Shown here: positions 23,583-64,000 of the stretch, piece after piece
Numbering within the stretch: position 1 is the stretch's first letter
How the letters are laid out: each line of letters starts with the position of its first letter
DNA from: an uncultured virus (IMG/VR IMGVR_UViG_3300025652_000046)
Taxonomy: Duplodnaviria; Heunggongvirae; Uroviricota; Caudoviricetes
Direction: 5' to 3' (one strand)
IMG/VR virus record: IMGVR_UViG_3300025652_000046
DNA: 64,000 nucleotides
Notes under the pieces: generated by a model
Databases searched by the model: none
What the model was told of the DNA's origin: nothing
The model's input: only the letters and a program-made list of their open reading frames with translations
Translations under genes and position numbers: made by a program

Positions 23583-25853
23583 TTAAGAGAAAGCAAATTC
23601 TGAATTTAGAATTGATTTCAGGTTTAGATTTCCACGTTCAGGCAGAAGATGTAAAGCATTACACTGAGTAAGCAATTGCACCAATGGGTCTGATTCGTAG
23701 AAGCGTACAAATTCCTCACGGGTTATCCGGAAGAGGTCCTCCATGTTACCAGGGTGACTGCCGAAGCTGTCGTGTACCGTAGTTACAATAAAGGGTGATT
23801 CATTCACTATCAATGTCAAGTGTGCGGCATCAAAGGAATGAATAATGTTTGGTGAAGCTCCACGTTTTTGGCCTTGCTTATTTAACGTGTTGAGTTCATC
23901 GGGTTGGATAGTTATACGTATACGCTTCCTCTTACAGAAGTTTAAACGGGGTCTATCCTCTTTAGTGTTGTAATACTGTTGTAGAACCTTGAAGTTGGTT
24001 ATAGGTACTGTCCAACCTAAGTGTTCTTTTCTAGTGTTAAACTCAGTTGCTAATGTCTCAAATAAATTAAGAAGTATAGCGGGTCCTTTCAATTCCTTAA
24101 GCATAACAGACATTACTAAATCTGCGAAAGGGTTTGTCCAGTAGGGTTTATCTTTGAACTTAAGTGGCTCTGAGAGTGTCTGTGTATCCTCAAATATCTG
24201 ATTTCTAACACCAGATATAGTAGCGCCATAACCAAGAGTCATTACGGGTCTCTTGATAGTCTTACGTTGTAGTTTCTTATCCTCAAGGTACATATGCCAG
24301 AAGGGTACAGCAATGTCCACAATCAAGTGTTTATTGTCTGCTCTCCAGGTGTCAAGTCTCTCTCGGAAGTCTTTAAGTTCAGGGGTACCGCCTCTAAGGG
24401 TTTCTCTCTCAAGCTTAAAAGACTTTATCTCTTGTATTAGGCGTTGTAGCTCCTCTTTAACAGGGTGGTCTCCCATCTTTATAAATCGAAGGTCTACTTC
24501 ACCCCATACAGCTTCAGCGATAAACATGTAAACATCACCAGGAAGTTCATTGTCATCACAAAGGTTCACTAATGGTGCAATCTGCTCATCCAGAGACAAA
24601 GCAGTTAGATGCTGTACACCATTGTTAGTACCATCGATGAATATAGGTATGTCACAGTTGTACTCTTCTCTAGGGTGACCTCCAATGATATGCCACTCTT
24701 CTAGCTTCTGGAACTCCATAGCGGCAGCAAGGGTTGACCATGGTTTGTCAGCTTGCATCCACCCAGTGTTCTCAAGTGGTCTCTTTGCCCATCCCATGAT
24801 GTCATCCATGTTGTCTACTACGTATTGTGCTCTACCGTTAAGAGGTAATTTGTCTTCTCCAATCGAGTTAGCCAAGTGTACAGCAAGCCAGAATTCACCA
24901 TTGTCTCCTAAGGGGGCACTATCTCTATATCTCAGTAAACCCTTGGCATTATCTGAGCTCTGTTCGTTAAGAAACGGAGTCAAAGGGTATATACGACCTC
25001 TGAAATCACAGTTGTATCCGTGGTAGAACGTTCTATCTCCAATACGGTCACAGAGGGACTTAATGAAGTTAGCTTCCAAGAACATACCTATCCTGCTTTC
25101 TCTTCGTGTTTCTTTGTCGTGTTTAAAGGGTGATTCTTTAGGGGGCACAAATTCATTTGAGAATAGAAGTTCTCTATCGCTCCTGGCGAATAGTTCTTCG
25201 TACACTCCAAATATCCTTGGACTTATTAAGAATCCTGTTCTTTGAAGTTTGTTTAATGCATCGTATATCCTGGGGGCTGAATCAGGAGTCATCGATTTCA
25301 GTATGTGGTTAGGTGCTTTTCTTACCATGGGGGCTTTTATAACATCATGGAAAGCAGAGGTCCAATCACCAGCAGGTTCAAGTAATGGGAAATCAGGGCT
25401 GAACTCCAAATCAGAAGATTCAATCAATTCTGCCAGTAAGTCTTGGTCTACACAACGTACCTCATAGACCGTGGTGCTATCCACTACGACCTTTCCTAAA
25501 TCTAGTAGCTTAAGTTTACTGTCAGGTTTATCTGTATTACAATAAGCCTCTAAAACTTTCATACCCATGAAGAGGTTGCTCTTAGTTTCTTTCTCAACGG
25601 CAGGAGCGTCCAGGTGTATCCTGACAAGCTTACCTATGCGTATTGCTACGTTTGCTACTGGCATCTCTTGCATTGCTGCTACTAGTACCTTCCCAAAAGT
25701 TAGGAGATAAATCTTCTCAGCGAGGACTTTTAGTTCTTCCTCATTGCTGAAGTGTTCAGACAACCAATTAATATAGGTTTGCCTTGAATCACTGGCAGAG
25801 CGCAATCGTTCAGATATGCTATCAATCACCAGCTGTCTTGTGGTTTCTTTCAT
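23583..25853 (-). CDS. Single-subunit T7-type DNA-directed RNA polymerase (stand-alone)
   Basis: DFRGRIY, motif A DGTNNGVQH, DVY, motif B R.TIKRPVMTLGYG, PNIIHSFDA, motif C VHDSF. Confidence 0.96.
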   Translation of the reverse strand: MKETTRQLVIDSISERLRSASDSRQTYINWLSEHFSNEEELKVLAEKIYLLTFGKVLVAAMQEMPVANVAIRIGKLVRIHLDAPAVEKETKSNLFMGMKVLEAYCNTDKPDSKLKLLDLGKVVVDSTTVYEVRCVDQDLLAELIESSDLEFSPDFPLLEPAGDWTSAFHDVIKAPMVRKAPNHILKSMTPDSAPRIYDALNKLQRTGFLISPRIFGVYEELFARSDRELLFSNEFVPPKESPFKHDKETRRESRIGMFLEANFIKSLCDRIGDRTFYHGYNCDFRGRIYPLTPFLNEQSSDNAKGLLRYRDSAPLGDNGEFWLAVHLANSIGEDKLPLNGRAQYVVDNMDDIMGWAKRPLENTGWMQADKPWSTLAAAMEFQKLEEWHIIGGHPREEYNCDIPIFIDGTNNGVQHLTALSLDEQIAPLVNLCDDNELPGDVYMFIAEAVWGEVDLRFIKMGDHPVKEELQRLIQEIKSFKLERETLRGGTPELKDFRERLDTWRADNKHLIVDIAVPFWHMYLEDKKLQRKTIKRPVMTLGYGATISGVRNQIFEDTQTLSEPLKFKDKPYWTNPFADLVMSVMLKELKGPAILLNLFETLATEFNTRKEHLGWTVPITNFKVLQQYYNTKEDRPRLNFCKRKRIRITIQPDELNTLNKQGQKRGASPNIIHSFDAAHLTLIVNESPFIVTTVHDSFGSHPGNMEDLFRITREEFVRFYESDPLVQLLTQCNALHLLPERGNLNLKSILNSEFAFS

Positions 25854-27531: not shown

Positions 27532-27562
27532 GGGGTATTCCTTAGGGTTTAGTTTAAATAGA

Positions 27563-27770: not shown

Positions 27771-27806
27771 ATTCTTCCATTATAGATACATCATTTTTCT
27801 CACTTT
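27771..27806 (-). promoter_or_regulatory. 36-bp direct repeat copy 1, candidate early promoter
   Basis: aaagtgagaaaaatgatgtatcTATAATggaagaat, identical to 29905-29940. Confidence 0.7.
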
Positions 27807-27828
27807 CAGGGGTAATATTTAAGCTAAT

Positions 27829-29904: not shown

Positions 29905-29940
29905 ATTCTTCCATTATAGATACATCATTTTTCTCACTTT
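29905..29940 (-). promoter_or_regulatory. 36-bp direct repeat copy 2, candidate early promoter
   Basis: identical to 27771-27806; contains TATAAT; lies just after the structural-operon terminator. Confidence 0.7.
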
Positions 29941-29965
29941 TTTGGCCCCTTTTTGGCCCCTTTTT

Positions 29966-30003
29966 AATAAAAATAACCCCCAAAACCGTGAGGTCTTGAG
30001 GGT
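29966..30003 (-). terminator. Terminator closing the structural gene block
   Basis: accctcaagacc-tcac-ggttttgggggt + tattttt. Confidence 0.7.
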
Positions 30004-36872: not shown

Positions 36873-36882
36873 TAAGCAACCC

Positions 36883-37170: not shown

Positions 37171-37194
37171 AAATGTCTCCTTGTTAGTGGGTAT

Positions 37195-41512: not shown

Positions 41513-41577
41513 TGTGGACCCTCTTCTAACTGTAGATTCTTTCTCATATCATTATTCCTTATATTTAGTTTAAATTA

Positions 41578-44500: not shown

Positions 44501-46266
44501 TCATTTAGAACTGAGTTGAACTTTATGTAGTCACCCGGTTCCAGATTGTAGGCCTCAGCGAATGTCTCAAATTCATATATGACAGAGCGCCTGGACTCAC
44601 GAACAAATTGCTCTGCTCTTGAAGTAGCGTGGTAAGGGTCTACGATAGCGTCTATAGTTAGCGCAGCATTCAGTACAACCCCATTATCCTCAGCTAAGAG
44701 TTGGTCATGTAGAGCAGAGCCTGTTGGAGGCCAAGTAGCACTTGCTGAACTAAAATCTTCTTGCTCATTTCTATAATTGACTGTACACTGGTTCAAACGT
44801 TCTGTGGCTTTAGGATAGCTAATTTTAATCTCTGATGTACGTAATATGTCATCTGTGATTATAAGGGTACCCTCTGCGCTAGCTTTTAGTTCAGCTTGGG
44901 TTGCAGGGTACTGTAGCTGTAGCTTATACTTGCCTTCCGACCATACCAGATCCGCATTACCCATACCCAGTAGAATCTCATCTACGTTATCCCTTACAGG
45001 TTTTGATGGATCTAGAGTTACATTACACTCGTATAACGGTAGTGTATCTGCTGGTGTTATCGTCTCTACCCATACCAGTGAGGATTCCTGTACAAGGAAC
45101 TCAGTATTGATATCAATAACATCCGCATTAGGACCTGGGACGATACTTGATATTGGTATATTGAAAGTATTAGTAGACGCCTCATAGTAAGCGCCAACGG
45201 TTTCGGTTATGCTGTATATATTGTCTCCACCTCTATGGAACGACAAACCGCCTGCATCTGAAGCGGCAAACACACCTGTGCCATTAATGAAGTCTGTTCC
45301 AAAGTCCTCTATACTTACCTCAACATCATTACTAGATTCAAGCTCTAAGTAGTCAACATTCTGCTGAGTGGACAAATTCACACCCGATGCATGCCACGAA
45401 GGTGACGTTGCGCTATCGAAGTAATTACCGCCATCAATCTTACCTTGTCGTGCGAATCCGCCCAGCCCTAACTCAGGGTTGACAGTCGAAGCACAAAGGA
45501 CAGCGGCATTATAGAAGGACTCTAGGTTAACATCTTCTAATGCTAGCCCCATGCCGTAGTGGGCAGTCAAGTAATCTAGTAGTACCAGCGCAGCGTTGTT
45601 AGAATATGTTAAAGTACCTGCACGATTATAAGAATAGAAATAAGCACCAGGACTACCAATCCTCCCGATATTAGGAATCTTCTTTCCTTTTATGAAGAAG
45701 CTCATAGCTGGTATACCAGAGTACTGAGGTTCATTATTGTCTAAGTGGAATATACCAGTACAATAGGCAATCTCTGTAAACTTGTTATTAGCATTCATAC
45801 CATTGGCAGTGGCCAAGGGGTCAGCTATCCCTCCGTCTGGGAAGGTACGTAGCATCTGCCCGAAATGCAGGGATTCATTATGGAAGTCTTGATCATCTAC
45901 TTCTATATGTGTAAAGCTTTCTATACCTCCCTGACATACAGCATATTGGCATGTTAAGAACTGGTTACGCCTTGATTTTGATTTGCTGTGAGTTATACTG
46001 GCACCCATGTCTCTAACAGACCACTGCTTAGTCCCTGCTGGTAGTGTACCGTCATACGTATAAGAAGAGGATGTTTTTGCTGCGGTAAGTACTGCTCCTA
46101 CTTTGTTCCTACCGTAGCATATGGGAAGGGACCGTGTTTCACCAGTGACGGTTGCTAGGAAGCCTTTACGCGCTTGCGCATCTGCCTCCATCCTTTTTTT
46201 CATTTTGGCTTGTTTCGAGTAAGTGAATACCGCAGAAACAATTGCTATTACAAGACTCCATGCCAT
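41578..46266 (-). CDS. Tail tip / central fibre protein (gpJ-like) with FN3-like domain and two collagen tracts
   Basis: LPICYGR, SNNAALVLLDYL...YG.G, LEPGDYI, YYRIRSV..G..S; Gly-X-Y tracts; C-terminal RVKIGNL; follows the Dit and gpL-like genes. Confidence 0.88.
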   Translation of the reverse strand: MAWSLVIAIVSAVFTYSKQAKMKKRMEADAQARKGFLATVTGETRSLPICYGRNKVGAVLTAAKTSSSYTYDGTLPAGTKQWSVRDMGASITHSKSKSRRNQFLTCQYAVCQGGIESFTHIEVDDQDFHNESLHFGQMLRTFPDGGIADPLATANGMNANNKFTEIAYCTGIFHLDNNEPQYSGIPAMSFFIKGKKIPNIGRIGSPGAYFYSYNRAGTLTYSNNAALVLLDYLTAHYGMGLALEDVNLESFYNAAVLCASTVNPELGLGGFARQGKIDGGNYFDSATSPSWHASGVNLSTQQNVDYLELESSNDVEVSIEDFGTDFINGTGVFAASDAGGLSFHRGGDNIYSITETVGAYYEASTNTFNIPISSIVPGPNADVIDINTEFLVQESSLVWVETITPADTLPLYECNVTLDPSKPVRDNVDEILLGMGNADLVWSEGKYKLQLQYPATQAELKASAEGTLIITDDILRTSEIKISYPKATERLNQCTVNYRNEQEDFSSASATWPPTGSALHDQLLAEDNGVVLNAALTIDAIVDPYHATSRAEQFVRESRRSVIYEFETFAEAYNLEPGDYIKFNSVLNDLTSDDDTALVTGVTLTENMTVRIEAFRVNATDLSWNIADTVASTYPPIVSYKTFPPFISNTAIPVIDLDTDTVTGYYVDEDKQRVFIRWDGDVFGSQVDKYIVEARENAATDDNQWVTISETSNEITYHIPGNPQLDIYYRIRSVSLTGKRSTNSVVIGPVNVSNISLKGAEGVKGDLGPEGVKGIQGTQGIPGDQGVKGEIGDKGIQGLQGEQGDKGLKGIVGFQGLQGEQGLQGDKGLKGILGFQGLQGAQGLQGDKGIKGIIGFQGLQGAQGLQGLQGDKGIKGVLGLQGLQGLQGDKGLKGILGAQGLQGLQGLQGLQGDKGIKGVLGLQGLQGLQGDKGLKGILGAQGLQGLQGLQGLQGDKGIKGVLGPQGLQGLQGDKGLKGILGSQGLQGAQGLQGQKGDIGIKGVQGPQGPQGGQGLQGAVGNTGETNFSYYTNAPIDYLEPEATTFVTSNIATGSMVGTTFTKTSVSPDWNAGAYSPQAYTTCTSTATFPDTTAGTPTKQVIFGMSNDPGTDPDFDKIDYAIYGASNSLWIFEEGVNISGTPVTTYLPGDILAVVNDGTVVTYLKNGIVIYTSSAAPSGTYRFDCSVYTQNLAITDISFEEIISDLDIAGTAPLSSNQWATAGGTYFWWPNPTQVPGGVTSIRWQRYAVTDAAVNITVADFTGPFTVEGAQGPTGAKGEQGVIGVKGVQGVQGAQGLQGLQGDKGILGPQGLQGLQGLQGQKGLKGITGLQGLQGLQGLQGQKGLKGILGPQGLQGLQGLQGQKGLKGITGLQGLQGLQGLQGQKGLKGILGPQGLQGLQGLQGQKGLKGIIGLQGFQGLQGAQGAQGLKGLKGLQGLQGLQGPQGVKGLKGPTGPQGVIGATGDTGDSGATVAIDTGASIANPTEAAAMILAIKGSPVQEYDIYWHIQTDQMWVYNDVGTWVKLSTVSNGTGNNSINMNGASNRIEIRDGTGVIRVKIGNLA
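41854..42465 (-). repeat. Collagen tract 2 (about 68 Gly-X-Y triplets)
   Basis: 9-nt tandem units with 63/126-nt higher-order period. Confidence 0.95.
43192..43992 (-). repeat. Collagen tract 1 (about 89 Gly-X-Y triplets)
   Basis: GLQ/GDK/GLK/GIK/GIL triplets. Confidence 0.95.
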
Positions 46267-47573: not shown

Positions 47574-50500
47574 TTATTTTCTGTTTTGTTCTTTATTTTG
47601 TTGGTTAACACCTTGAGCGATAGTCGGCATCATACTATAGATTTCTTTCTTAGTTTGACGTGAGATATCACCTGTGACATTAATGCTTATTTGCTGTTGA
47701 TTTCCTGCTTGTCCATTTCTTGAACGGTCAAGTTCACCGAAAAGATTAGATTGCTGCCTTTTGTTGAGAATCATTTCCCCACCATGAGCAATTACAGGAG
47801 TAGGTCCGCCACCAGGTACTAAGCCGCCATCATTGAAGAATCCACCAATAGCAGAGAATATACCGCCGCCACCTTCACCGCCGCCAAATAAGCCGCCAAG
47901 AGAACCTAGTAGATCACCACCACCTCCACCGCCGCCAAATAAGCCGCCAAGAGAACTTAGTAAGCCACTGAAAACACCGCCAAAGCCACCGAGTAGCCCA
48001 TCGAACAAGCCACCTAATCCGGGTAAAAAGCCATCGAATATTTTACCGATGCTACCAGCACCTGCGTCCATACCTGCTTCTACTCCTTCACCTGCTCCTT
48101 CAGCAGCACCTGCGCCGCCTCCTGTGAAAGCTGCGAAAGCGCCACCTGTGTAATCTTTAGCACTACCACCTTCGCTTTTGTCTCCTGCGAAAGCTGCGAA
48201 AGCGCCACCTGTGTAATCTCCGGCACTGCCACCTTTACTTGGTGCTTTATCTTCCTTTCCACCGCCAAAGCCAAAGATTCCGCCAAGAGAAGAGAGTATA
48301 CCACCGCCTTCCTCGCCGCCAAAACCTAGCATGCCTATATCAGAAAACATAGTTTCTAGTGCTTTTGAGAAATCGCTAGCTTCACCGTCTACGTTATTAA
48401 AGATACTTTCAGTAATACCACTAGCTAAAGTATCTAATACAGTACCCGTGAAAGAGTCTAACAGACCATTTGCAAAACCCTTAAAGTCAGTCTCGCCTTT
48501 AAGCAGACCTCCGATACCTGATTCTACATCTCCCTTAATTTTACCAACTCCTTTTGAAGCCAGTGCTGCAATTGCGGGAATCACTACCTTAGTATTTTCT
48601 GCAACATCTTCGAGGATAGCAGATACATTTCCTAATTGGGTGATAAGGTCGTTATCCAAGATTTTAAGTTGGCTTAACAGTTGGAGAGGTACTTTCTCGT
48701 TACGCTTCTCCATCTCAAAAATCTTAGCTTGTACCTTATTACGACTATCGCTAAGATCCAAAAGTCTCTTAGTCAAGCTAGCATTTTCAGCAAGTTCTTT
48801 TGCTAAGACGTCAGTGTCTAGTGTTTGATCTGATAACGTTTTAGTCAACGAGATAATGAGATCATCAGCGCTAAATATACTATCACTAGCCTTTGAACTA
48901 TCTCCACCGAAAGCATTAAAACCTTTTAAGATAGTATCTTTTAATCCAGAGATAACCTTAGATACACTGGCATAGTTCTCTTTACCAAGAAGAGACTCAA
49001 GCATGGACCCTAATGATTCAAGTGCCGACATGAATAAATCACCCATTCCACTTAACACACCGCCACCGCCAGAAGAGGTTGCACTGCTAGAGCTACCTAC
49101 ACTACCGCCACCAGCGAAACCTGGAAGTTTACCTGTGGAGTTAAGCTGTTCTAAGAAGGGGCGATGTTCAGATGCCACTGATGTCTTCATGACAAACTCG
49201 CCATTAGACAACATAGCGGGAATAGAATCTGAAGTAGCTGAGCCTGCACCAAATACAGAACCGCCATTTGCACGTTTAACAGGTGCTATAGGTTTTTCAT
49301 TTGTTTTAGTGTCTGATCCACCGCCGAAACCGAAGGCACTCTTGATGTAAGAGAGGATAGTAGAACCCATCTCCGAAGCGAGGTCTACTAGACCACTTAA
49401 ACCATCGAGTATGGAATCCGCGAAAGTAGTACCTGCTTCTTTTAACCACGTCATACCTTCAAATATAGCACCACCTAGTTTACGACCTACCTCCTCGAGG
49501 AAGTCAAATCCAGCTCTAATGTATCCCATCAGAACTTCGCCTGCTGCCATTATCTCATCGCTAAGCAGGTATGCAATAACGGCAATTGCCCCTACAAGTG
49601 CTGCTACAAGTCCAATAACAAGAAGAGCCATACCACTTATCGGAGCCATTGCTAATAAGAATGCAGCGCCTTGGACAGCAGCGAGGAAAACAAGTGAGGA
49701 CGCTGTCATTATAGAGGAAGCTGCTAGCGTAATAGCTGCGCCTGCGGTAGCTCCTGCGATCTGTGCGCCTATCATAATGGCTCTTACGGCTACGAATGAG
49801 GCCATAATGCCAACTCTCAGAGCTGCTGCGCCCGCTAAAATGCCTACACGCATAGCAACCAGGAGAGTTTTTGTAAGTAATACGAAGCCCTTACCGATGA
49901 ATAGTAATGCCTTACCTGCGCCAACAAACACACTCGTAATCATTGGGGTTAGTAGGCCTGTAATTAGCATCTGAAATGTAGCAGCGGTCACTTGAAAGAT
50001 CGCCTGAACAATACTCCCTACTATTAGTTGTCCAAGCTGTGCTGCTATGAGAACACTAATCATAGTCTCAGCGCTGTTCATGCCAAATGTCTTAGCGGCT
50101 TTAGCCATCATACCCGCGCCCAGGAAACCACCTACCGTTCCACCTATCATTCCGCCTAACCTACCGAAAGCACCGATAGCTGCGGATAGTGTTTCTTTGA
50201 GCCTAGAATTAGGACCGTCTAGTAGTTGTGAGTTAATCTGCAACTTCTTTTGGTTCATTTGTATCGAATTAACAAGTTTGGTGGTTTCGGCTTTCTCTTG
50301 CGCTTTCAGCCCAACTAGCTCCTGGTTTATCTTATTGGCTCTCGCTGACGTAGTAGCTAATCCTGATAACTCAGATTCTAATCTCAGTTTCTGTCCTCGT
50401 ATAGATTCTTTTAAACCTCCAAGTTCGGCGTTTAACAGCTGGCCTTGGGCTTGTAGTCCTCGAATAAAACCGCCAGCCGCTCTTCCTTGCCAAACATCGC

Positions 50501-52325
50501 CGAGGTTTTGACCCACGGCTTTAGTAGCACCGCCGAGGGGGTTAAGTATGCTTGAACCACCTGTCGCTCCTGCGGCTACCATAGTTTTTATAGCAGCAAC
50601 CAGGATAGGTAAGCTCGCCGCAACGGCTATTATGTTCTCACTAAGGAAGTTCATTACCTTTTCTAGACTATCAGTAGGCATTAAAGGTGCTGCACCTGAG
50701 ACAAGCGCGCTAATCCCGTGAGCGATAGTTAACAAAATGTTTACTTGACTCTCAAGAAGCTCATTCATTGGACCAGAAGAGGTAGCTCTTCCCATATCAA
50801 ATGAGTCTACAATACCTATGAGGTAAGCCCCGACTACTCCAATGAAAGCAGTAGCAATCTTAGCGCCTAAGGAGCCAGCGAAGCCTCCTCCTATAACTGC
50901 TATCGCGAAAGCAGCGGTCAAGGCAGCAGCTAGTGCTCCAATTATCCCTACTACAGCAAAAGAAGTTAATTTGTTTACAAAAAGTTTAATACCATTTTGT
51001 ATCTTTTTTAGGAAGGTTTGGAAACCTTCGGTACTAGGGAAAACTATACCTTCAAATGCATCCTTTATCTTATCTCGCAAACTAGCGAAGATGCCACCTG
51101 CTTTAGCTGCAAACGAATTAACTTTAGTTGCTGCTTTGTTTAAGTTGTCTGTGTAATCAACTACCCCATTTACTAGGTCCGGCCAAGTAGAGTTACCTAC
51201 AATTTCGATATACAAGTCGTAGAAGATAGTACCTACGCTCTTTGCAAAAGATTTAACCGCATCAAGAGCGCCGAATAGGCGACTAGCGTAAGAAACTACT
51301 CCGTCTACCATACGCTTAAAGCTATTTACAACAGCGCCTTCTAGGCTTCCAAACTCTAATTTAAGTAGTAAGATATCTGTTTGTATAACTCTTAGGAACA
51401 CTGATATATTGTCAATAGCGTTAGTGATTCCTGCTGTTAAGTTCTGTACAATATCCTCTCCACCAGTAATTGTTTTGAGGGTATCTGAGACTGTGCCAAA
51501 CAGTCTATTCAGAGAGATACCGAGTTCTCTACCAGAGTTTGCAATGATCTGGTTAAAAGGAATTTTCAGAGTAGCAAATTCTGCTTCAATATCATCCTTG
51601 GCATTAAGTAATGCGTTAGCTACTGTATCTCCAGAAATCTTTCCTTCTTCGGCAAGCTTCTTCAGTTGGCCAACGGTTGTTTTCAACTCCTTAGCGATTG
51701 CTTGTGCAATACGCGGAGTTCCTTCAAGTACAGAGTTAAGCTCGTCACCTCTGAGAGTACCCGCTGCTAAGCCTTGTTGTAGCTGCGTTAGGGAAGCAGA
51801 GATTGTTGCTGCAGGACCACCACCAATTTTACCTGCCTTGATGAGCACTTCGGTAAGCGCAGTGGCTTCTTTTCTGCCACGTTGCGCGTTGACAACTAAG
51901 CTTGAATATAAGTTGACTGTAGTTTCTAAATCAACATTGCTCCTACGAGCTATGCCGAATAGTTTTTGTTGTTGTACGACTAATTGCCCTGTTCTACCTG
52001 TAGTAAGTGCAATTCTGTTATTGAGTTCTGTAAACTGTGAGCTTAGGCTAGAGATTCCTCCTGCCGCAAGCAGACTTGTGATAAGCCCCCCGGTGATCTT
52101 AGCAAAGGTGCTAAGGCTGCGTACTGTGTTTTGTAAGCTTTTACCGGATTTTTCTACATTTTTGTTTATGGCCTTTAGATCATTAGAGACATCTTTAGAA
52201 AAGCTGGATATTTCTGCACCGCTTTTCCTTACAGAAGTAGGGAGTTCATCGAGAGTTGACAGAAGGCGCTTAAGACTAGCTTCAGCCTGTTTAGAATTAC
52301 TTTTGATTTCAATTTCTAAACTCAT
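47574..52325 (-). CDS. Tape measure protein
   Basis: QLQQGLA.G.LRGDELNSVLE N-terminal tape-measure motif; A/G-rich helical body; SDSIPAMLSNGEFV. Confidence 0.95.
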   Translation of the reverse strand: MSLEIEIKSNSKQAEASLKRLLSTLDELPTSVRKSGAEISSFSKDVSNDLKAINKNVEKSGKSLQNTVRSLSTFAKITGGLITSLLAAGGISSLSSQFTELNNRIALTTGRTGQLVVQQQKLFGIARRSNVDLETTVNLYSSLVVNAQRGRKEATALTEVLIKAGKIGGGPAATISASLTQLQQGLAAGTLRGDELNSVLEGTPRIAQAIAKELKTTVGQLKKLAEEGKISGDTVANALLNAKDDIEAEFATLKIPFNQIIANSGRELGISLNRLFGTVSDTLKTITGGEDIVQNLTAGITNAIDNISVFLRVIQTDILLLKLEFGSLEGAVVNSFKRMVDGVVSYASRLFGALDAVKSFAKSVGTIFYDLYIEIVGNSTWPDLVNGVVDYTDNLNKAATKVNSFAAKAGGIFASLRDKIKDAFEGIVFPSTEGFQTFLKKIQNGIKLFVNKLTSFAVVGIIGALAAALTAAFAIAVIGGGFAGSLGAKIATAFIGVVGAYLIGIVDSFDMGRATSSGPMNELLESQVNILLTIAHGISALVSGAAPLMPTDSLEKVMNFLSENIIAVAASLPILVAAIKTMVAAGATGGSSILNPLGGATKAVGQNLGDVWQGRAAGGFIRGLQAQGQLLNAELGGLKESIRGQKLRLESELSGLATTSARANKINQELVGLKAQEKAETTKLVNSIQMNQKKLQINSQLLDGPNSRLKETLSAAIGAFGRLGGMIGGTVGGFLGAGMMAKAAKTFGMNSAETMISVLIAAQLGQLIVGSIVQAIFQVTAATFQMLITGLLTPMITSVFVGAGKALLFIGKGFVLLTKTLLVAMRVGILAGAAALRVGIMASFVAVRAIMIGAQIAGATAGAAITLAASSIMTASSLVFLAAVQGAAFLLAMAPISGMALLVIGLVAALVGAIAVIAYLLSDEIMAAGEVLMGYIRAGFDFLEEVGRKLGGAIFEGMTWLKEAGTTFADSILDGLSGLVDLASEMGSTILSYIKSAFGFGGGSDTKTNEKPIAPVKRANGGSVFGAGSATSDSIPAMLSNGEFVMKTSVASEHRPFLEQLNSTGKLPGFAGGGSVGSSSSATSSGGGGVLSGMGDLFMSALESLGSMLESLLGKENYASVSKVISGLKDTILKGFNAFGGDSSKASDSIFSADDLIISLTKTLSDQTLDTDVLAKELAENASLTKRLLDLSDSRNKVQAKIFEMEKRNEKVPLQLLSQLKILDNDLITQLGNVSAILEDVAENTKVVIPAIAALASKGVGKIKGDVESGIGGLLKGETDFKGFANGLLDSFTGTVLDTLASGITESIFNNVDGEASDFSKALETMFSDIGMLGFGGEEGGGILSSLGGIFGFGGGKEDKAPSKGGSAGDYTGGAFAAFAGDKSEGGSAKDYTGGAFAAFTGGGAGAAEGAGEGVEAGMDAGAGSIGKIFDGFLPGLGGLFDGLLGGFGGVFSGLLSSLGGLFGGGGGGGDLLGSLGGLFGGGEGGGGIFSAIGGFFNDGGLVPGGGPTPVIAHGGEMILNKRQQSNLFGELDRSRNGQAGNQQQISINVTGDISRQTKKEIYSMMPTIAQGVNQQNKEQNRK

Positions 52326-55640: not shown

Positions 55641-56825
55641 TTAGGCGTGGAAAATTGGTAAGATACCAAGGTTAAGAAGGTCAACTTTACGAGTCCAAGT
55701 AGGAGTCGCAGCAGTACCAGCATATGAAGCGTTAGTAGCGAAAGCATCTTGAGTACCAGCGAAGCTGTAACCACGTGCATGCATAACATAGCCCCAACGG
55801 TACCAAGCTGTAGTACGGCCAGAACCAGAACCTACGCTCTCGTTACGATCCATAGCAACAGGGTTAGCAATGCTTGTGCTGTGCATGAAGATAGAACCAG
55901 GAAGCATCATGTAAGATACTTTAGCAGTTGTGATAGAAGTAACACCAGAAAGTGCTGCGTGAGTTACTGCGCCTAGGCCTTGGCCGAAGTTGCGAGAAAC
56001 GATTACGCGAATAACACCGCCTAATAAAGTTTCAAAAGAGATGTTACCATCAGTGATACGTTCGTCATCAACTAAGTTGGCAACTTTGATATCTAGGTAA
56101 ACTTCAGGAGAAACTACTAAGTATACGAAATCTGGAGTGTAGTCAGACCATGCACCCATAGCGCGAATTAAATGTTCAACACGTTGTCCAGGAGAGCTAG
56201 CAGTTAAATCTACTAAGCCTTCTAAGCTAGAACCAGTACCAACAGTGTCGCTTGAAGCAGCAACGTAAGCGAAAGCTTTAGAGTTGTCACCATCTACAGA
56301 GTTGCCAGCGAAGGCTTCTGAGTAGGTAGAACCTGCCAAGTCGTTAGCAGTTTTAAGCTCAGTGTTCATAACACCAGCTAAACAGCTACGTAATGATTGA
56401 TCTTCATCTTCAGCACGAGTTTCAGCGAAGTCACGAGCGATCTTGGCTAAGCCGTCTTCGCCAGAGATAACACTTTGAACTAAATATTCGTTAGCACCGT
56501 GAGTACGGACAGTTTTGATGTAAGTCTGTACTTCAGTTTGGATGTTAGTAGTGCCACCATGATTTTCATCTTGGCTAGCTACGTTAACAACTGCATTGTT
56601 AGAACCAGCAACGTTTTCAGTAGCGTTAACGCCACCTACTGCGTATGCGCCAAGTGGCTTGTAGAAGCGAACTTGACCGATGAAGTCTTCACCGTCTGCT
56701 TTGATTTGTGCGTCTTGACCGATAATCGAAGTTGATACGATTTTCTTTGCACGAGTATACATCTCATCTGAGTAAGCTGAGATTGCTTTATTTAATGTGC
56801 CGAATGCACTTGAAGAAATTGCCAT
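55641..56825 (-). CDS. Major capsid protein
   Basis: 394 aa after the scaffold gene; strong codon bias; G..V.V.. and RWGYV.H..G.SF.G features. Confidence 0.85.
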   Translation of the reverse strand: MAISSSAFGTLNKAISAYSDEMYTRAKKIVSTSIIGQDAQIKADGEDFIGQVRFYKPLGAYAVGGVNATENVAGSNNAVVNVASQDENHGGTTNIQTEVQTYIKTVRTHGANEYLVQSVISGEDGLAKIARDFAETRAEDEDQSLRSCLAGVMNTELKTANDLAGSTYSEAFAGNSVDGDNSKAFAYVAASSDTVGTGSSLEGLVDLTASSPGQRVEHLIRAMGAWSDYTPDFVYLVVSPEVYLDIKVANLVDDERITDGNISFETLLGGVIRVIVSRNFGQGLGAVTHAALSGVTSITTAKVSYMMLPGSIFMHSTSIANPVAMDRNESVGSGSGRTTAWYRWGYVMHARGYSFAGTQDAFATNASYAGTAATPTWTRKVDLLNLGILPIFHA

Positions 56826-56869: not shown

Positions 56870-57523
56870 TTACAACCACTTGCCACTACCGTCAAGATGT
56901 CCTGCAGCTGCTGCTGTCATTATCTCTTCAGTAGTCATTTCTGCTAGTGATTTGTTAGTGTCGAAACTTCCAGTTGGGGATTGCATTGCTGCTTGTCCTG
57001 TTCCAGAAGATTGCTTTGGTTTAAATAAGAACTCTTTATCATCGTCCTTACGGAAACTGTCAATGAAATCCTTAACAGAAGCGCCAGTTTTATGCACCCA
57101 CTGACCATTCTCATTTTGTGTTAATTGAGATACCACGTCCCGATAGGCAAATTCTGCTGCTGTATCGTTACGGAAGTCTAAGCCCTTAAGAGCACTACGT
57201 ACAGCACCGTCTCGTGTTAACTCAACGATCTGTTTGTCTCTTGCTGCCAATTTAGCAGTAATTTCTGTAAGCTTCATGTCAGATGCTTCTTTGTGCTTAC
57301 CATCTTCTTCTAGTTGAGCTATCGCGCTAAGTCTCTTTTCTTCTTCAAAAGAAACAGACTTTTGTATAGCTTCATCACGTTGAGAGTAAGCGCTGTTTAG
57401 TTTCTCTTTGATACTAGCAAGCTCTTCATCCACTTTTGCTTGGATGATTTTTTGTAGTTCTTCAGAGTCTAAAGCAGATGCTTGGTTTGCTTCGTTATTT
57501 TCATTCATATTATCGTTATCCAT
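56870..57523 (-). CDS. Capsid scaffolding protein
   Basis: acidic coiled-coil, FLFK...SGTG tail; directly upstream of the MCP gene. Confidence 0.8.
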   Translation of the reverse strand: MDNDNMNENNEANQASALDSEELQKIIQAKVDEELASIKEKLNSAYSQRDEAIQKSVSFEEEKRLSAIAQLEEDGKHKEASDMKLTEITAKLAARDKQIVELTRDGAVRSALKGLDFRNDTAAEFAYRDVVSQLTQNENGQWVHKTGASVKDFIDSFRKDDDKEFLFKPKQSSGTGQAAMQSPTGSFDTNKSLAEMTTEEIMTAAAAGHLDGSGKWL

Positions 57524-57669: not shown

Positions 57670-60600
57670 TCACGGTCCGATGCCATACCAATCCCAACCA
57701 TCAGGGATTTTAGCACGTATTTCTTTGGCAGTAATGCCATTTTTACTGTTCAGTAAGCCGTCTGCTTCTGCTTTCGCTAAGAGCATTCGGTAAGATTCCT
57801 CAGAGAGTCCTCTTTTTCTCATTGCCTTTAAAGTGTTTAGGAGAGATTCACCGTCTATTGCATCAGCATAAATATCACGTAATGCGAATTTAGCGTCAAC
57901 AGAGTCAGCAAGGTTTGTAAAGAAACCATCGTGAATAGTTGCAGTCAGAATACGATTCTTCTTGCCCCATAAATGGAATTTCCTTACGATTGTAGCATCA
58001 TTCATATGATTGCCGTTTACTCCTAAACCACTACGAGCTCCTATAATAGACTGCTTACCGATAAACTTGCTATCGGTTATAGTATCTTCGTAGATATTTG
58101 AAACCTTTCGTCCAGTTACAGGGTCAGTAAATTCGATCCTTTCTTGAACAACGGGTCTATAGCGTTGAAATAAAAGTTTACCATCCATCGTGACCCAAGG
58201 GATATCAACCTCTTTGGATTCCGTGATGTATACTTTCGCAACGTCTTTCCAGAATGATACAAACTTTTCTGTAACAGGAGCAATATCTTTCAAATGCCCA
58301 CTCATTATTTCAGCAACTTTCTTGAACTGATTAGGTCCGATTAAGCCGCCCTTGACGTTGGTCAACTTGCTAACAAATACAGCAGAATCGGGATGCATGT
58401 CCTGTGCCATAGCAAGGAGCTTGTTTCCGATAGGTGCGTTGTTGTTGATAGCATAGTTTGCTTCTCTTTTTAATTCTTTTAGAGAGGCAGATACTTGTGT
58501 AGCTTTATCACCATCTGCTTTCTTAATGGCACTATCTATGGACCGATTAAACTCACGGAGTTCAGCCCCTGATATGACTACATAGTCTTTCTTGGTGAGT
58601 ATTTTAGCTAGTTTACCTTCTATAGCTGCTGCCTGTGTTGCTTGTCCTGCCCCATAAAATGCAACCATCGATTGTCCCTTAGCTCCTTTTGCAAGGTCAC
58701 CAAAGTCGATGTCATTACCAATAGGGTTTATAGCCCTAAATCGAGGGTCAGACATTGTTCTTTCTGCTACAAGGTCATATAAACGATTCTTACGACCAGT
58801 CGCAAGTACATTGGAAGCTTCGGCTAACGCTCTATCCCTAGTGGATAACGCTATTAACTGTGCTCCAGATGCTGATGCATCGTTTTCATTACCGAGTTGT
58901 GTCTTATACGTTCTTAGCTTTTTAACATTAGTGAAATCGCCATCTACATGATTGTGGATACGAGTGTACTCTAATGCGAATCTGGCTAATTTAGGTAATT
59001 CTTCTGCTTCAATCTCTCTAACTAGGGGATGCTCCAGAAACTGTCTGATGCGACCCTGTCTTTGAGTTTTAGATAACAATAGCTCTCCGATCTCTCGCAG
59101 TTGTTTCTCTCTGGCAGCAAATGAAGCTAATCTTCCTTCGTTAGTTAAAACACTGAATGCTTCGCCTGTTAGGTTACCTAATTGTATTTTTAATTCTAGT
59201 AAAACTGATTCATTAATATTCTTGGCTATTTTGGTGTTTAAGAAAGGTCGAACAAACTCACCACCAGCAGGATGTAAATAACCCTGGGTGTAAACTCGTC
59301 CACGTCCATCTATCTGAGCCCAAGTGCGCCATGATGTTTTGTTTTGTAAATGCCACCTTAAAGATTGCATCATACCCATGCCTTGCTCACCACGTTGTAA
59401 TATAACTTTACGAAAGCTATTAAGCTCATCATACTTAGCTACTTGACCTCTAGGGTCACGAAAGTGCGCCAGGTCATCAAAGAAGCCTGCGAAGTCTGTA
59501 TCTACTTCCCACTCAGCATCCATTACGTGATTGAGCATTTCAGAAAAATCTTTATCAACAAGGTTCTTTTCGTAGTTACCACCAGCCTTACGTGTGATGA
59601 CGCTAACATCAGTCTTGTTACCACGGGTATCGAAAAACTTCTTCTCGCCTGCCTTAACAACTAAACGGTCTTGTTCTTTAATTATACCTATCCGTCTTGA
59701 ATAGATAAGCTCACGGTTAGCTCGTTGTAACTTGAGCATAGTAGGGTCTACTATTTGTACCTCTCTAGCTATAGTGTCTTTAAATGAACCTATCTCATTA
59801 CGTCCACTATCTAAATCGATAACACCTCTGCGGGTTACACCTCGTAATCCTACTTTGATTTTACCTTGTGCCTTTAGACCAGTGAGAATGTTAGAACCCA
59901 TTTTATGGTATTCACCAAGAGTAGGAGCTTTAAAGAATACTTCCCAGTCTCTTACTTCTGCTTCATGTAGCTTCTTACCTATTTGTATAGAAAGACTATC
60001 ATAGTCAGAAGATTGACCTGTAGCAACGTCTTTCATAATCTCAGACATTAGCTTAGTTCTATCTTTTATAAACTCAGGAGTTGCTGATTCTTGTATGAAG
60101 TCAGCCTTCTTCTTAGTATACCACCACTCCAAATCTAGGAACCTGCGCTTTCGCTCAGTACCTGCTTGTAGGAATTTGGTGATAGCACTATCAGAAGGTA
60201 TACCTTTCCATCTACGCACAAACGCTTTACCAAAAGGTATCTTTTCAATTTCTTTAATAATGATAGCTTTCGCATCAGGGAACTTTGGTAGAATGTTGGG
60301 TAGCTTTGGAAAATAATTTCGCAAAGGAGAACGACCACCTAAGTAGCTTTTTCTTGCTAGACCAATCCCTTCTGTTGCTGCCCAGTTAGTTACATATCTT
60401 TGGTTCTTTAGAGTTCTCTCAGCTATCTCATTGAAAGTAGTCCATTCACCCATTATTTGTATCTTTGCATCTTCCCCGCTAGCTCCAAACTTATAGACCT
60501 GTGAACGAGAACGAGAACGTCTGTCTAGTACCCTGGATACGTTGACAACAGAGTTTTTAAGCTCTGCTCTTAATACCGCAGCAAGGTTATCCCATGGTTT

Positions 60601-62121
60601 CTTATCCTTAGCGAATCGCTCCATGACAACACGTAGGTTCTCAATGATAACGGATTGCTGATTGACAGAGACTCCATCATTTTCCATAGACAGTGCAAAT
60701 CGTTTAATAAAGTTCTTTTGGTCTTGACTTAGTAGCTTAGAAGTGTCTAGGTAATCCATACGCTCTTGTAGTACTTTAAAATCAGGATCATAAACGAGAG
60801 TCGATTTAGTCTCACCTGTCAAAGGGTCAACGCCTGTGTTTCTCTCATCGAACTGGTTGTTGGCTCTACGTCTTGTACCTTTCTTACCAGGAACCGAAGT
60901 ACCCCGGAAGTCTGTCAGGGACAGATTAGAGTGTACATTGTGAGCCTCTGCTCTAAAGAATAAGCGTAGTTCATCTTCAACTGCTGCACTTCTTATAAGG
61001 GAGGAGGGCCTGCCTGCGTTGATTGCTAGCGCGTTAACTACATTAGAGCTCAACACTTTTTGTCTAACTGGCGTAGTATTTGTGTTCTTATTATCCAGTC
61101 GGCGTAATGCAGTTAAGGAAAGCGGTTTACCACTTGAGGTAGTAAAACTTTCTATAGGTAATTGACCATTATCGAAAAGTTCTACCTTTCGTATATCGCC
61201 TTGGAAGTGTCTAATTTTTACTTCTTGTTTTTGTCTTTTTAACCAAGTACCGTAATCTTCTTTAGAAGGAGCCACCCCGTTAAGGTTTGCCACTTGGGAA
61301 GCCTTTAATCCCTTTAACACGTCCTTCTTGATATCAGGAGAGGCACTAGTTAGTAATTCACTATGTGACTTTAACACCGGAACCAGAGTACTACGACATC
61401 GCCAATGGAGTGGTGGTATGAATCGGGTATCATCAATATCGTAAACCTTACCGTCATGGTGAGCACAGATCGAAGAAGTACGGCTATCTAATACCGCTGT
61501 AAATCTAATACCTTTCATAATTTCACGGTTTTCTTTAAGCACATTTAGCTGTGCAACCGTTTGTGTTCTTGTTATAGAGGTACGTACTAGAGCGGAAGCG
61601 TGAGCCTCTGTCAGTCTAGTCTTCCCTACCACGTTACGGATTATTTCGCTATTCGATAAACCCTTAGACAGACCTGTGTTGATTGCTGTCTGCATCCTGG
61701 TAAGTTCGCCGCTGCCTAGGCTTTGTATACGTTGAGCGAGATTACCATCACCTCTAACGTTAACCCCTACTATTTCAGCTAGTACCTTTGTAGCTCCTGG
61801 TCTACGTATGTTTGCATACTTACCAATAGCTTTATTTAAATTGTTTGTAGTGAAGTCTACTTCGGTTAATCCGTAGTCCTCCATACCACCTACTAGGTGA
61901 GTGTTCATCTCCGATGTGAAACGTGTGACTTCAGGGTGGATGATGTCTTTCATTGTACGAGTTCTATCTACGGAATTGCCTGCGGATAGTTGTTTAGTCA
62001 GACGAGTACGATGGCGTCTAATTATACGCTTGGTATCTGTTTGGACGTTCTCTTCGTTGAGCCTTACCATTGACGAGTGGTCTACAGTGCGGTCATAAAT
62101 CTTATCATTGATGCTTGGCAT
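57670..62121 (-). CDS. MuF (SPP1 gp7-like) head morphogenesis domain fused to a T7-type RNA polymerase
   Basis: LVRT, FTAVLDSRTSSIC...DG, PPLHWRCRS; then DGRGRVY, DASASGAQ, LYDLVA, K..SM..FYG, W.T.DG, N.NH.NDA, IHDGF. Confidence 0.92.
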   Translation of the reverse strand: MPSINDKIYDRTVDHSSMVRLNEENVQTDTKRIIRRHRTRLTKQLSAGNSVDRTRTMKDIIHPEVTRFTSEMNTHLVGGMEDYGLTEVDFTTNNLNKAIGKYANIRRPGATKVLAEIVGVNVRGDGNLAQRIQSLGSGELTRMQTAINTGLSKGLSNSEIIRNVVGKTRLTEAHASALVRTSITRTQTVAQLNVLKENREIMKGIRFTAVLDSRTSSICAHHDGKVYDIDDTRFIPPLHWRCRSTLVPVLKSHSELLTSASPDIKKDVLKGLKASQVANLNGVAPSKEDYGTWLKRQKQEVKIRHFQGDIRKVELFDNGQLPIESFTTSSGKPLSLTALRRLDNKNTNTTPVRQKVLSSNVVNALAINAGRPSSLIRSAAVEDELRLFFRAEAHNVHSNLSLTDFRGTSVPGKKGTRRRANNQFDERNTGVDPLTGETKSTLVYDPDFKVLQERMDYLDTSKLLSQDQKNFIKRFALSMENDGVSVNQQSVIIENLRVVMERFAKDKKPWDNLAAVLRAELKNSVVNVSRVLDRRSRSRSQVYKFGASGEDAKIQIMGEWTTFNEIAERTLKNQRYVTNWAATEGIGLARKSYLGGRSPLRNYFPKLPNILPKFPDAKAIIIKEIEKIPFGKAFVRRWKGIPSDSAITKFLQAGTERKRRFLDLEWWYTKKKADFIQESATPEFIKDRTKLMSEIMKDVATGQSSDYDSLSIQIGKKLHEAEVRDWEVFFKAPTLGEYHKMGSNILTGLKAQGKIKVGLRGVTRRGVIDLDSGRNEIGSFKDTIAREVQIVDPTMLKLQRANRELIYSRRIGIIKEQDRLVVKAGEKKFFDTRGNKTDVSVITRKAGGNYEKNLVDKDFSEMLNHVMDAEWEVDTDFAGFFDDLAHFRDPRGQVAKYDELNSFRKVILQRGEQGMGMMQSLRWHLQNKTSWRTWAQIDGRGRVYTQGYLHPAGGEFVRPFLNTKIAKNINESVLLELKIQLGNLTGEAFSVLTNEGRLASFAAREKQLREIGELLLSKTQRQGRIRQFLEHPLVREIEAEELPKLARFALEYTRIHNHVDGDFTNVKKLRTYKTQLGNENDASASGAQLIALSTRDRALAEASNVLATGRKNRLYDLVAERTMSDPRFRAINPIGNDIDFGDLAKGAKGQSMVAFYGAGQATQAAAIEGKLAKILTKKDYVVISGAELREFNRSIDSAIKKADGDKATQVSASLKELKREANYAINNNAPIGNKLLAMAQDMHPDSAVFVSKLTNVKGGLIGPNQFKKVAEIMSGHLKDIAPVTEKFVSFWKDVAKVYITESKEVDIPWVTMDGKLLFQRYRPVVQERIEFTDPVTGRKVSNIYEDTITDSKFIGKQSIIGARSGLGVNGNHMNDATIVRKFHLWGKKNRILTATIHDGFFTNLADSVDAKFALRDIYADAIDGESLLNTLKAMRKRGLSEESYRMLLAKAEADGLLNSKNGITAKEIRAKIPDGWDWYGIGP

Positions 62122-62168
62122 ATGGAGCCTCCCGTTATGTAGGTATATTTAAAATTAGTGTATAAGAA

Positions 62169-62205
62169 AACCACTAACAGTGTGTTGTATGTACCGTTAG
62201 TGATT
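62169..62205 (-). terminator. Stem-loop upstream of the MuF-RNAP gene
   Basis: aatcactaacggt...actgttagtggtt + ttctt. Confidence 0.5.
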
Positions 62206-62208
62206 CTA

Positions 62209-63110: not shown

Positions 63111-63362
63111 TCATTTCTGCAAGATTTCAAGTGCAGCCTTTTCACTTAGCGCAGCTCGTCCATGGAATTCAATATTCGCTTTTGTACCTATGATAATCCA
63201 CATTCTATCCTTTAGACGGAATGCTTCAATTTTCCATAGGCCACTTTTAGATATAGCACCTACTTCTAATTGAGGAGTAGGTTTAGCTACCGGTTTAGCT
63301 GCGGCTGCCTTTGGGGCAACCTCTTTGCTAGTTGTTTTCTTAATACTAGGTTTGCTACTCAT
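63111..63362 (-). CDS. Hypothetical protein with K/A/P-rich N-terminus
   Basis: overlaps the portal stop. Confidence 0.55.
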   Translation of the reverse strand: MSSKPSIKKTTSKEVAPKAAAAKPVAKPTPQLEVGAISKSGLWKIEAFRLKDRMWIIIGTKANIEFHGRAALSEKAALEILQK

Positions 63363-64000
63363 CTTCATCTTCCTCATTAGTAATTGTTTCAGGTTGTTTT
63401 GACATGCGGTTGACTAAGTCATCCATAGGTAGCGCATCCACTCCGCCCATAATCAAATCATCCTTGCCTATTTCTTCTTGTCCTTTTTCATCATCATAAT
63501 CTGAATCAATGATGTCATTTGCCTTAGCAATGTCAAGGAAAGTTGAACGTGGTATAAGTCCTGTTTGGTACCATTCTGTAACCAGGCGTAACCAGTCAGC
63601 GCCAATAGGTGCTGGGTTTAAATCTGGAGTCAGGTCAAATTTTATGTCTTCTATTTTGTAGTCAGTATCATACCTCCAGTTAATCATCCAACAAAGGACT
63701 TTACGCATTTGCTGAGATACTTTGGTAGATATAGAAGCTAATAAAGCAGACTGTCCTGCGTTTCTTATTTCAAGTGCTACACCTGAATCTCTGCCGCCGC
63801 CTGTCTCTGCTGCCATCATACGGATACCCAAACGAGCCATCTCGTTAACAGTATTTTGAATTACTGTTTCCATGTCACGTAGTGCTGCCGAAGGCGTTTC
63901 TAATGCTTTAATCTCATCGCCTTGCCCTAATTTGATCCAAGAACCTAGACCTGCTGATACCACATCTTCAAAACTGTCGTCTGTCATATCAGACATAATA
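63355..64000 (-). CDS. Portal protein, C-terminal part (runs off the window)
   Basis: M..LG.R, SG.AL..R, W..G.I...T.......; acidic tail; upstream of MuF/scaffold/MCP. Confidence 0.75.
   Translation of the reverse strand, partial: IMSDMTDDSFEDVVSAGLGSWIKLGQGDEIKALETPSAALRDMETVIQNTVNEMARLGIRMMAAETGGGRDSGVALEIRNAGQSALLASISTKVSQQMRKVLCWMINWRYDTDYKIEDIKFDLTPDLNPAPIGADWLRLVTEWYQTGLIPRSTFLDIAKANDIIDSDYDDEKGQEEIGKDDLIMGGVDALPMDDLVNRMSKQPETITNEEDEDE

Follow-up and report, generated by a model that had tools for sequence, protein, structure and literature searches.

We analysed a 64,000-nucleotide (nt) stretch of DNA from an uncultured virus (IMG/VR record IMGVR_UViG_3300025652_000046; Caudoviricetes), which we refer to as the window, and our subject is one gene on its minus strand at 57670..62121. 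This gene joins a MuF-type phage head protein to a complete and apparently active RNA polymerase (RNAP) of the T7 type, and a second, free RNAP of the same type is encoded elsewhere in the window. We lean, with somewhat more belief than doubt, toward the reading that the fused RNAP is delivered with the virion and would transcribe the early genes, among them the gene for the second RNAP. An earlier note, made from the sequence alone, had singled the gene out as a candidate for such an enzyme. The gene and its modules are laid out as follows.

57670..62121, minus strand: whole MuF-RNAP fusion gene, a single uninterrupted open reading frame (ORF) of 1483 residues plus stop, with PF04233 and PF00940 and with full-length relatives at 46-86% identity
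61072..62121, minus strand: MuF / SPP1 gp7-like head-morphogenesis module, residues 1-350 (phrog_241, PF04233, TIGR01641)
nt 61384-61695, minus strand: Pfam core of the MuF module, residues 143-246, containing C219 and C242
60457..61071, minus strand: conserved middle module, residues ~351-555, structured in the AlphaFold 2 model and without known fold or family
57673..60456, minus strand: complete T7-type single-subunit RNAP module, residues ~556-1483

The two ends of the protein are assigned by independent profile collections. Phage_Mu_F (Pfam PF04233) matches residues 143-246 with an expectation value (E) of 1.8e-13 (51.6 bits against a cutoff of 29.6), TIGR01641 phageSPP1_gp7 of NCBIfam scores 57.3 bits against a cutoff of 39.65, and the PHROG head morphogenesis family phrog_241 covers residues 1-345 (E 2e-57). 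These matches agree with the MuF signature that had been read by eye, LDSRTSSIC and PPLHWRCRS, which we located in the ORF at residues 211-219 and 236-244. Further along, the PHROG RNA polymerase family phrog_414 matches residues 926-1174 (E 3.4e-21), and RNA_pol (PF00940) matches residues 1065-1437 as a marginal pass (E 2.4e-5, 23.8 bits). From this layout we infer a minor head protein with RNA polymerase cargo, one that would be packaged and injected.

We modelled residues 551-1483 with AlphaFold, using 50 relatives as input, and obtained a predicted local distance difference test score (pLDDT) of 86.4 and a predicted template modelling score (pTM) of 0.79. The top matches of this model in the PDB, found with Foldseek, are T7 RNAP chains with E down to 1.7e-19, and the alignment runs over T7 residues ~30-883, which is the T7 RNAP fold over its whole length. 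Mitochondrial RNAPs had structural comparison scores of ~25 and the mini version of the N4 virion RNAP (vRNAP) scored 16.4. The comparison with T7 RNAP and N4 mini-vRNAP proposed in the earlier note has thus been run, with T7 RNAP as the best match, and it bears out the claim of a T7-type polymerase. By sequence the module is a distant relation of T7 RNAP, with a phmmer E of 1.3e-4 and ~14-17% identity when the structures are aligned. Membership of the N4 vRNAP family was ruled out, as the N4-like phrog_2166 matched only at E 1.2e-3 and the fold is of the T7 type. The note had also left about 650 residues of the protein unassigned. Since the T7 fold, with its N-terminal domain, begins at about residue 556, most of that sequence belongs to the polymerase: residues ~556-937 make up the T7-type N-terminal domain and the start of the polymerase fold, and the description holds only for residues ~250-555, which have no known fold.

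The active site could be followed motif by motif.

59290..59310, minus strand: DGRGRVY, residues 938-944, aligned by HMMER with T7 DWRGRVY; D938, R940, G941, R942 and Y944 invariant in 33 sequences
58858..58881, minus strand: motif A DASASGAQ, residues 1081-1088, with D1081 aligned with T7 D537; D1081, A1082, S1083, S1085, G1086, A1087 and Q1088 invariant
58651..58680, minus strand: motif B K1148-x7-Y1156-G1157; K1148, M1152, V1153, Y1156 and G1157 invariant
57922..58008, minus strand: H1372 through motif C IHDGF (residues 1396-1400), with H1372 aligned with T7 H784 and H1397-D1398 with T7 H811-D812 (HMMER); invariant

All of the RNAP motifs quoted in the earlier note are present, with DGRGRVY exactly where it had been placed. 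In motif B, K1148 and Y1156 presumably correspond to T7 K631 and Y639, an equivalence taken from the motif pattern rather than from a residue-level alignment. The residues D938, R940, G941, R942, Y944, D1081, K1148, Y1156, H1372, H1397 and D1398 are invariant in 33 relatives that are 46-82% identical to the query. Invariance over this range of divergence suggests purifying selection on catalysis, and together with the modelled fold it indicates that the fused polymerase is complete and apparently active.

A further sign that catalysis is under selection comes from relatives in which the gene is interrupted. Splits and insertions of the homing type cluster near motifs A and B, at query residues ~1066, ~1120 and ~1153-1158 (break points ~515, ~570 and ~603-608 when counted in the residue 551-1483 query; relatives P0126-P0165). 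An HNH endonuclease gene interrupts the fusion gene of EBPR siphovirus 1 immediately behind motif B (L003 3040-8413). Homing endonucleases, introns or inteins appear to target the polymerase active site, and it is the habit of homing elements to settle at conserved, indispensable sites. Some fusion relatives are 1821-2073 residues long.

The middle module is not a flexible spacer, since it is confidently folded and holds many invariant residues. The AlphaFold 2 model of residues 1-620 has a pLDDT of 85.1 and a pTM of 0.74, and the 33-sequence alignment shows invariant positions such as G407, T408, G412, K413, R419, N422 and D425. We found no Pfam match to residues ~250-555, no usable match to them in an Atlas search, and neither a Foldseek match at E <= 1e-3 nor an informative PDB neighbour for the residue 1-620 model. 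We considered G407-x4-G412-K413 as a canonical Walker A motif and ruled it out, because the residue that follows the lysine is variable. The modules are joined by a short basic linker, RSRSRS (residues ~535-551), where model confidence is lower.

The fusion is widespread. A tblastn search found it at full length in the cultured roseophages DSS3_VP1 and DSS3_PM1 (Naomviridae), at 45.6% identity and 100% coverage; their public labels say only 'head morphogenesis' or 'minor head protein-like', and wider public annotation of the family reads head morphogenesis or minor capsid protein. In a large protein collection there are at least 184 protein clusters at E <= 1e-3, and among the 120 clusters listed nearly all are ~1450-1510 residues long and carry PF04233, PF00940 or both. 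When residues 551-1483 were searched against 1.84 billion representatives (50%-identity level), 116 proteins came up at E <= 1e-3; the full-length matches among them hold the polymerase at residues ~550-1500 of ~1480-residue proteins, and no ordinary T7-like RNAP appeared at this threshold. Matches to the fusion also occur in at least 617 IMG/VR stretches. The survey of architectures combining MuF with RNA_pol that the earlier note had suggested therefore found a widespread family of nearly uniform length among the clusters listed.

The same note had raised the worry that the fusion might be an assembly artefact absent from relatives. The fusion is genuine: besides the numerous full-length relatives, an independent contig (L019) is 100% identical and shows the full 550-residue portal, which rules out an artefact or chimera. 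A complete relative of 76,946 bp (G002) shows the same gene order as the window, with proteins that are only ~49% identical. The 107-bp overlap of its ends lies inside the tape measure gene, so we take it to be an assembly overlap that is uninformative on the physical genome ends.

Every gene in the window is encoded on the minus strand. Read in the sense of transcription, the portal comes first; four small ORFs separate it from the fusion, after which come scaffold, major head protein, connectors, tape measure protein and tail/fibre genes, followed by a small-gene cluster, the free RNAP, single-stranded DNA-binding protein, DNA polymerase, primase-helicase, ribonucleotide reductase and endolysin.

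63355..63999, minus strand: portal gene, C-terminal part, continuing past the window edge (phrog_145 at 2.2e-21)
56870-57523, minus strand: scaffold
55641-56825, minus strand: major head protein
47574-52325, minus strand: tape measure protein, 1583 residues, matching only tape-measure families in the PHROG scan
23583..25853, minus strand: second, free T7-type RNAP, 756 residues with 8 cysteines (PF00940 at 1.5e-72)
13183-14835, minus strand: primase-helicase

The fusion gene lies between portal and scaffold, as the earlier note had it, and DSS3_VP1 and G002 share this order of head genes. Among the 49 window ORFs that we scanned there is no second MuF. A separate canonical RNAP had likewise been claimed at 23583-25853, and its strong PF00940 match leaves that claim intact. 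The two-RNAP arrangement is conserved: free RNAP orthologues are kept in DSS3_VP1 and DSS3_PM1 (36-40% identity) and in all five of the five long fusion-bearing IMG/VR records. Recent duplication of the free RNAP was ruled out, as the fused and free enzymes have no similarity detectable by BLASTP (E 0.38). The fused RNAP is an old, separate lineage. That the phage is long-tailed agrees with its 1583-residue tape measure protein, its lambda-like tail tube and the siphovirus morphotype of the cultured relatives given in the main text of PMC8323127.

Directly upstream of the fusion gene, at 62122-62208 on the minus strand, there is a terminator-like hairpin, CACTAACGG...CTGTTAGTG followed by GTTTTCTT. 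With this hairpin in place, the fusion gene may have its own transcription start, apart from that of the portal gene.

We found two kinds of repeated element in and around the early region.

29976..30003, minus strand: terminator-like hairpin and T-run, closing the tail/late block before Element 1
29905..29942, minus strand: Element 1 copy 1, AAAAAGTGAGAAAA-N7-ATCTATAATGG..., a candidate early promoter just downstream of the terminator
27771..27808, minus strand: Element 1 copy 2
27539..27562, 27712-27735, 29305-29328 and 29859-29882, with a weaker copy at 23526-23544, minus strand: Element 2 (TCTATTTAAACTAAACCCTAAGGA), which ends in a ribosome-binding site

Element 1 is ~38 nt long, bipartite, AAAAAGTGAGAAAA-N7-ATCTATAATGA (copy 1 in full: AAAAAGTGAGAAAAATGATGTATCTATAATGGAAGAA), and conserved across the family, and opens the early small-gene cluster. 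In all six genomes where we placed both it and the free RNAP gene (the window, G002, G003, G005, G006 and DSS3_VP1), the element precedes that gene and shares its strand. G002 has it twice at the same location, DSS3_VP1 has two copies just after the tape measure gene and a terminator, and hairpins equivalent to that of the window precede the first copy in the relatives and in DSS3_VP1. An exact 26-mer of the element occurs in 17 IMG/VR stretches and the bipartite form AAAGTGAGAAAA-N7-ATCTATAATG in 104. Conservation at the fixed positions of this pattern follows from how the copies were selected, but a set of 100 distinct copies is also conserved outside them, in the upstream A's, at two positions of the spacer, and in a downstream A and AA.

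We asked whether Element 1 could be an ordinary sigma-70 promoter and disfavour this. By eye there is no -35 hexamer 16-18 nt from its TATAAT, and a sigma-70 consensus scan of 25800-31600 gave 12 sites, against 15.6 +/- 4.5 in shuffles, with none at Element 1; yet the -10 is perfect. The early promoters of N4 are DNA hairpins. In Element 1 no inverted repeat is apparent in the sequence, which was not formally folded.

The element travels with the fusion in those records that can tell us about it. Six of the ten long records that bear Element 1 hold the fusion, and the other four (G007, G011, G012 and G015) are fragments, 62-85% complete, with no MuF match at all; lacking MuF as well, they are uninformative rather than counter-examples. 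In Pelagibacter phage Kolga, whose free RNAP is related (28% identity), MuF is a 633-residue protein without polymerase. Kolga gave 0 matches to Element 1 at up to 3 mismatches, and its early genes are preceded by sequences of the TTGACT-N17-TATAAT type. For the fused RNAP, the predicted specificity loop shares 57-63% identity between the window and its relatives (48-52% overall), versus 20-27% for the loop of the free RNAP (35-39% overall), which fits a conserved promoter for the fused RNAP and lineage-specific promoters for the free one. On these grounds we regard Element 1 as a candidate promoter for the fused RNAP.

Element 2 is a candidate for the promoter of the free RNAP, or else a leader element, and we take it to resemble promoters of the T3/T7 class. 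In G002 its conservation is confined to the Element 1 leaders. The only exact repeated 11-mers in the window are those of Element 2, with no free RNAP promoters found outside the early region, and a search for 10-mers in G002 gave nothing comparable. The predicted ORF 29711-30016 (minus strand) spans the terminator and Element 1; the real gene within it probably starts at an ATG near 29851, behind Element 2 and an AAGGG ribosome-binding site.

The amino acid composition of the fusion bears on where the protein resides. The MuF core contains the only two cysteines of the protein, C219 and C242; in the 1241 residues after C242 there are 0. Among 113 relatives of at least 1400 residues, 111 have 0 cysteines beyond residue 300. 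Cysteine makes up 0.46% of the structural module of the window and 1.33% of its non-structural genes, with counts of 0 in the 1583 residues of the tape measure protein and 8 in the 756 of the free RNAP. If cysteine occurred at the non-structural rate, finding 0 in 1241 residues would have a chance of ~6e-8; the structural rate gives ~0.003. We take the cysteine-free composition as circumstantial support for a role in the virion.

Put together, these observations suggest the following scheme. The MuF/SPP1-gp7-type module would bring a few copies of the fusion into the procapsid beside the portal, as expected from what is known of MuF/gp7 proteins and their cargo fusions, and the C-terminal 930 residues would be a catalytically competent T7-type RNAP. 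On infection the fusion would leave the capsid with the DNA and start transcription at the two Element 1 copies. The early cluster ends in the free RNAP gene, and the free RNAP would then take over middle and late transcription from lineage-specific promoters. Such a scheme would be a polymerase relay akin to those of N4 (vRNAP, then RNAPII) and of P23-45 (a vRNAP fused to the tape measure protein, then a non-virion RNAP). As an extension, Naomviridae-like siphophages in general, that is those behind the at least 617 IMG/VR stretches, might inject a MuF-anchored T7-type RNAP that reads a new and unusually long bipartite promoter, AAAAAGTGAGAAAA-N7-ATCTATAATGA, almost unchanged throughout the family, with early transcription independent of the host polymerase and with MuF serving as a general address tag. 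We offer this broader claim tentatively, as one that we doubt slightly more than we believe.

Several points weigh against virion delivery and an early role. We reach the presence of the fusion in virions, its ejection and its activity by inference only, and a folded protein of 167 kDa would need to pass through a long, narrow tail. For SPP1 gp7 the known role is to retain DNA at the portal, not to lead it into the cell. The main text of the paper on DSS3_VP1 and DSS3_PM1 (PMC8323127), which does not take in Tables S2/S3, mentions no RNA polymerase and reports no virion proteomics. The Pfam RNA_pol score barely clears its threshold of 22 bits, and R1328, which aligns with T7 R746, varies among relatives. 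As for Element 1, its TATAAT is perfect and could belong to a -10-only or activator-dependent host promoter, the fusion-less contrast is a single genome (Kolga), and the association with the fusion is confounded by common descent. In the interpretation given by the earlier note, then, the fusion, the T7 type, the conserved two-RNAP layout and the long tail stand, and for the virion and early role the evidence is circumstantial, namely the cysteine-free composition and an Element 1 without a -35 box.

We weighed four other explanations. The polymerase could be packaged and remain tethered in the head, serving DNA maturation, packaging or the handling of genome ends, with the host RNAP reading Element 1. 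T7 RNAP pausing at the concatemer junction aids T7 DNA maturation, and Element 1 sits at the late/early gene boundary, where T7-like genomes have their ends; moreover, the MuF module and the lack of cysteines argue for virion residence only and not for injection, and the perfect TATAAT would suit the host enzyme. We still consider this unlikely, given that a missing -35 box and conservation over ~38 nt, spacer included, would be unusual for a host promoter and that nothing we found points to a packaging role. It is decidedly unlikely, in our judgement, that the fusion is not delivered at all and simply couples late-phase synthesis of the RNAP to the head genes, with the polymerase cleaved off, perhaps by the ClpP-like protease (2581-3192), for late or replication-linked use. 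Such an arrangement would suit a gene in the late structural operon, the lower-confidence basic linker between the modules and the presence of a Clp-family protease gene in the window. It would leave unexplained why the fused state is kept in the 113 long relatives and why a cytoplasmic enzyme should be depleted of cysteine when the free RNAP is not. Nor did we see a conserved internal start (the consensus does not retain the methionine at residue ~557), the middle module is folded and no spacer, and the phage already encodes a free RNAP.

T7 RNAP also primes replication and pulls DNA into the cell. The fused enzyme might be delivered mainly for tasks of this kind, priming or processing DNA or pulling the genome in, without a dedicated early programme, and a T7-type enzyme that conserves the ribonucleotide-selecting tyrosine (Y1156) would be capable of it. 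We think this very unlikely, as the phage has its own primase-helicase and Element 1 is followed by early genes that encode proteins and by the free RNAP gene in 6 of 6 genomes placed. An inactive polymerase module, kept as a structural relic or as a plug that binds DNA, is hardly credible: the marginal Pfam score would fit a decayed enzyme, but the catalytic residues are all invariant in relatives as little as 46% identical, the full T7 fold is retained, and homing elements target motifs A and B.

The closest parallel is the Thermus phage P23-45, also a siphovirus. In PMC10770324, its gp96 is described as a virion RNAP fused to the tape measure protein, with a second, non-virion RNAP in gp64; the virion enzyme was shown experimentally to transcribe the pre-early genes, including that of the non-virion RNAP, and a motif found upstream of pre-early genes only in fusion-bearing relatives linked the enzyme to the motif. 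The window phage is alike in having an RNAP within a structural protein, a second RNAP and a motif tied to the fusion, with the function here being our proposal. Unlike it, P23-45 has two-barrel RNAPs of the cellular type, the virion one lying at the N-terminus of the tape measure protein, whereas here a T7-type right-hand polymerase is carried on MuF. We looked for an RNAP fused to the tape measure protein in the window as well, and that protein matched only tape-measure PHROGs.

With N4 gp50 (Schitoviridae; PMC13434306) the fusion would share a capsid-borne single-subunit RNAP of the T7 superfamily that starts infection and is followed by a second phage RNAP. N4 gp50 differs in being ~3500 residues long, with a mini-vRNAP domain at its centre, with its own N- and C-terminal domains for delivery and encapsidation and without MuF, and in belonging to a podovirus. 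To T7 RNAP, the gene 1 product of Autographiviridae, the likeness is in the enzyme: the full-length fold, DxRGRVY, motifs A and C, the H784 equivalent, the motif B pattern and an insertion of the size of the specificity loop. Unlike the fusion, T7 RNAP is a free early-gene product and never in the virion.

Iyer et al. 2017 (PMC5512222) proposed packaging and delivery for cargo fusions of MuF / SPP1 gp7 proteins, in which an enzymatic domain follows MuF and the gene lies near that of the portal. The passages of that paper that deal with such cargo name RNases, 2H phosphoesterases, RelA/SpoT, phosphoribosyltransferases and ADP-ribosyltransferases; RNA polymerase cargo does not appear in them, its figures and supplements lying beyond those passages. 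No account of a MuF-RNAP fusion turned up in a full-text literature search, whose reach ends short of subscription journals and the PMC8323127 supplements. In the known cases too a virion RNAP is part of a structural protein and a second RNAP follows, but with another anchor and another class of polymerase.

The window has some other features that we record here. Near the lysis end and far from the head module are a ClpP-family protease (2581-3192), which may or may not be the prohead protease, and a protein matching DUF6445 and a 'minor coat' PHROG (2020-2571), both on the minus strand. A GIY-YIG SegE-like homing endonuclease gene (15003-15563, minus strand) lies between the 5'-3' exonuclease and primase-helicase genes. 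The 1562-residue collagen-like tail fibre (41578-46266, minus strand) has 9-nt periodic repeats with 117 register copies. Directly after it (region 39611-46266) comes a 633-residue protein with Glyco_transf_25, a PLOD glycosyltransferase domain and a 2OG-Fe(II) oxygenase, which resembles a collagen-lysine hydroxylase/glycosyltransferase and seems well placed to act on the fibre. ORF 30911-31540 contains 93-nt tandem repeats at 31092-31469. Between ORFs 33306-34556 and 34653-36932/36883-37170, segments at the gene starts and upstream of them are 78-87% identical (34492-34615 vs 36808-37188), which suggests that the heads of tail-module genes were duplicated.

In the cultured members of the group deoxyuridine (dU) replaces deoxythymidine (dT) in the DNA, and an injected fusion there would parallel the virion RNAPs of the other phages with dU-DNA. 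The window holds a dCMP-deaminase-family gene and a nucleoside 2-deoxyribosyltransferase-like gene (10981-11460 and 22502-22951, minus strand). In DSS3_VP1 the dCMP-deaminase family acts as a dCTP deaminase for dU-DNA (PMC12697855). Neither thymidylate synthase nor an HD/YfbR-type hydrolase was found among the window ORFs scanned. The window phage may have modified DNA.

To our knowledge, virion-borne RNAPs occur in a few groups only, namely N4-like podoviruses, jumbo phages of the phiKZ/AR9 type, crAss-like phages and Thermus phage P23-45, and each group solved the packaging of the enzyme differently. A MuF-anchored T7-type enzyme, if our reading is true, would add another independent solution to these, one present in abundant siphophages of seas and lakes. 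As the family includes a cultured model, DSS3_VP1 on Ruegeria pomeroyi, the idea is directly testable. If it is true, the range of MuF cargo would grow from small toxins and enzymes to a large, processive polymerase of 105 kDa, and the phages would hold a compact, cysteine-free single-subunit RNAP with a probably new class of promoter. It would possibly also explain how transcription starts in phages with dU or otherwise modified DNA.

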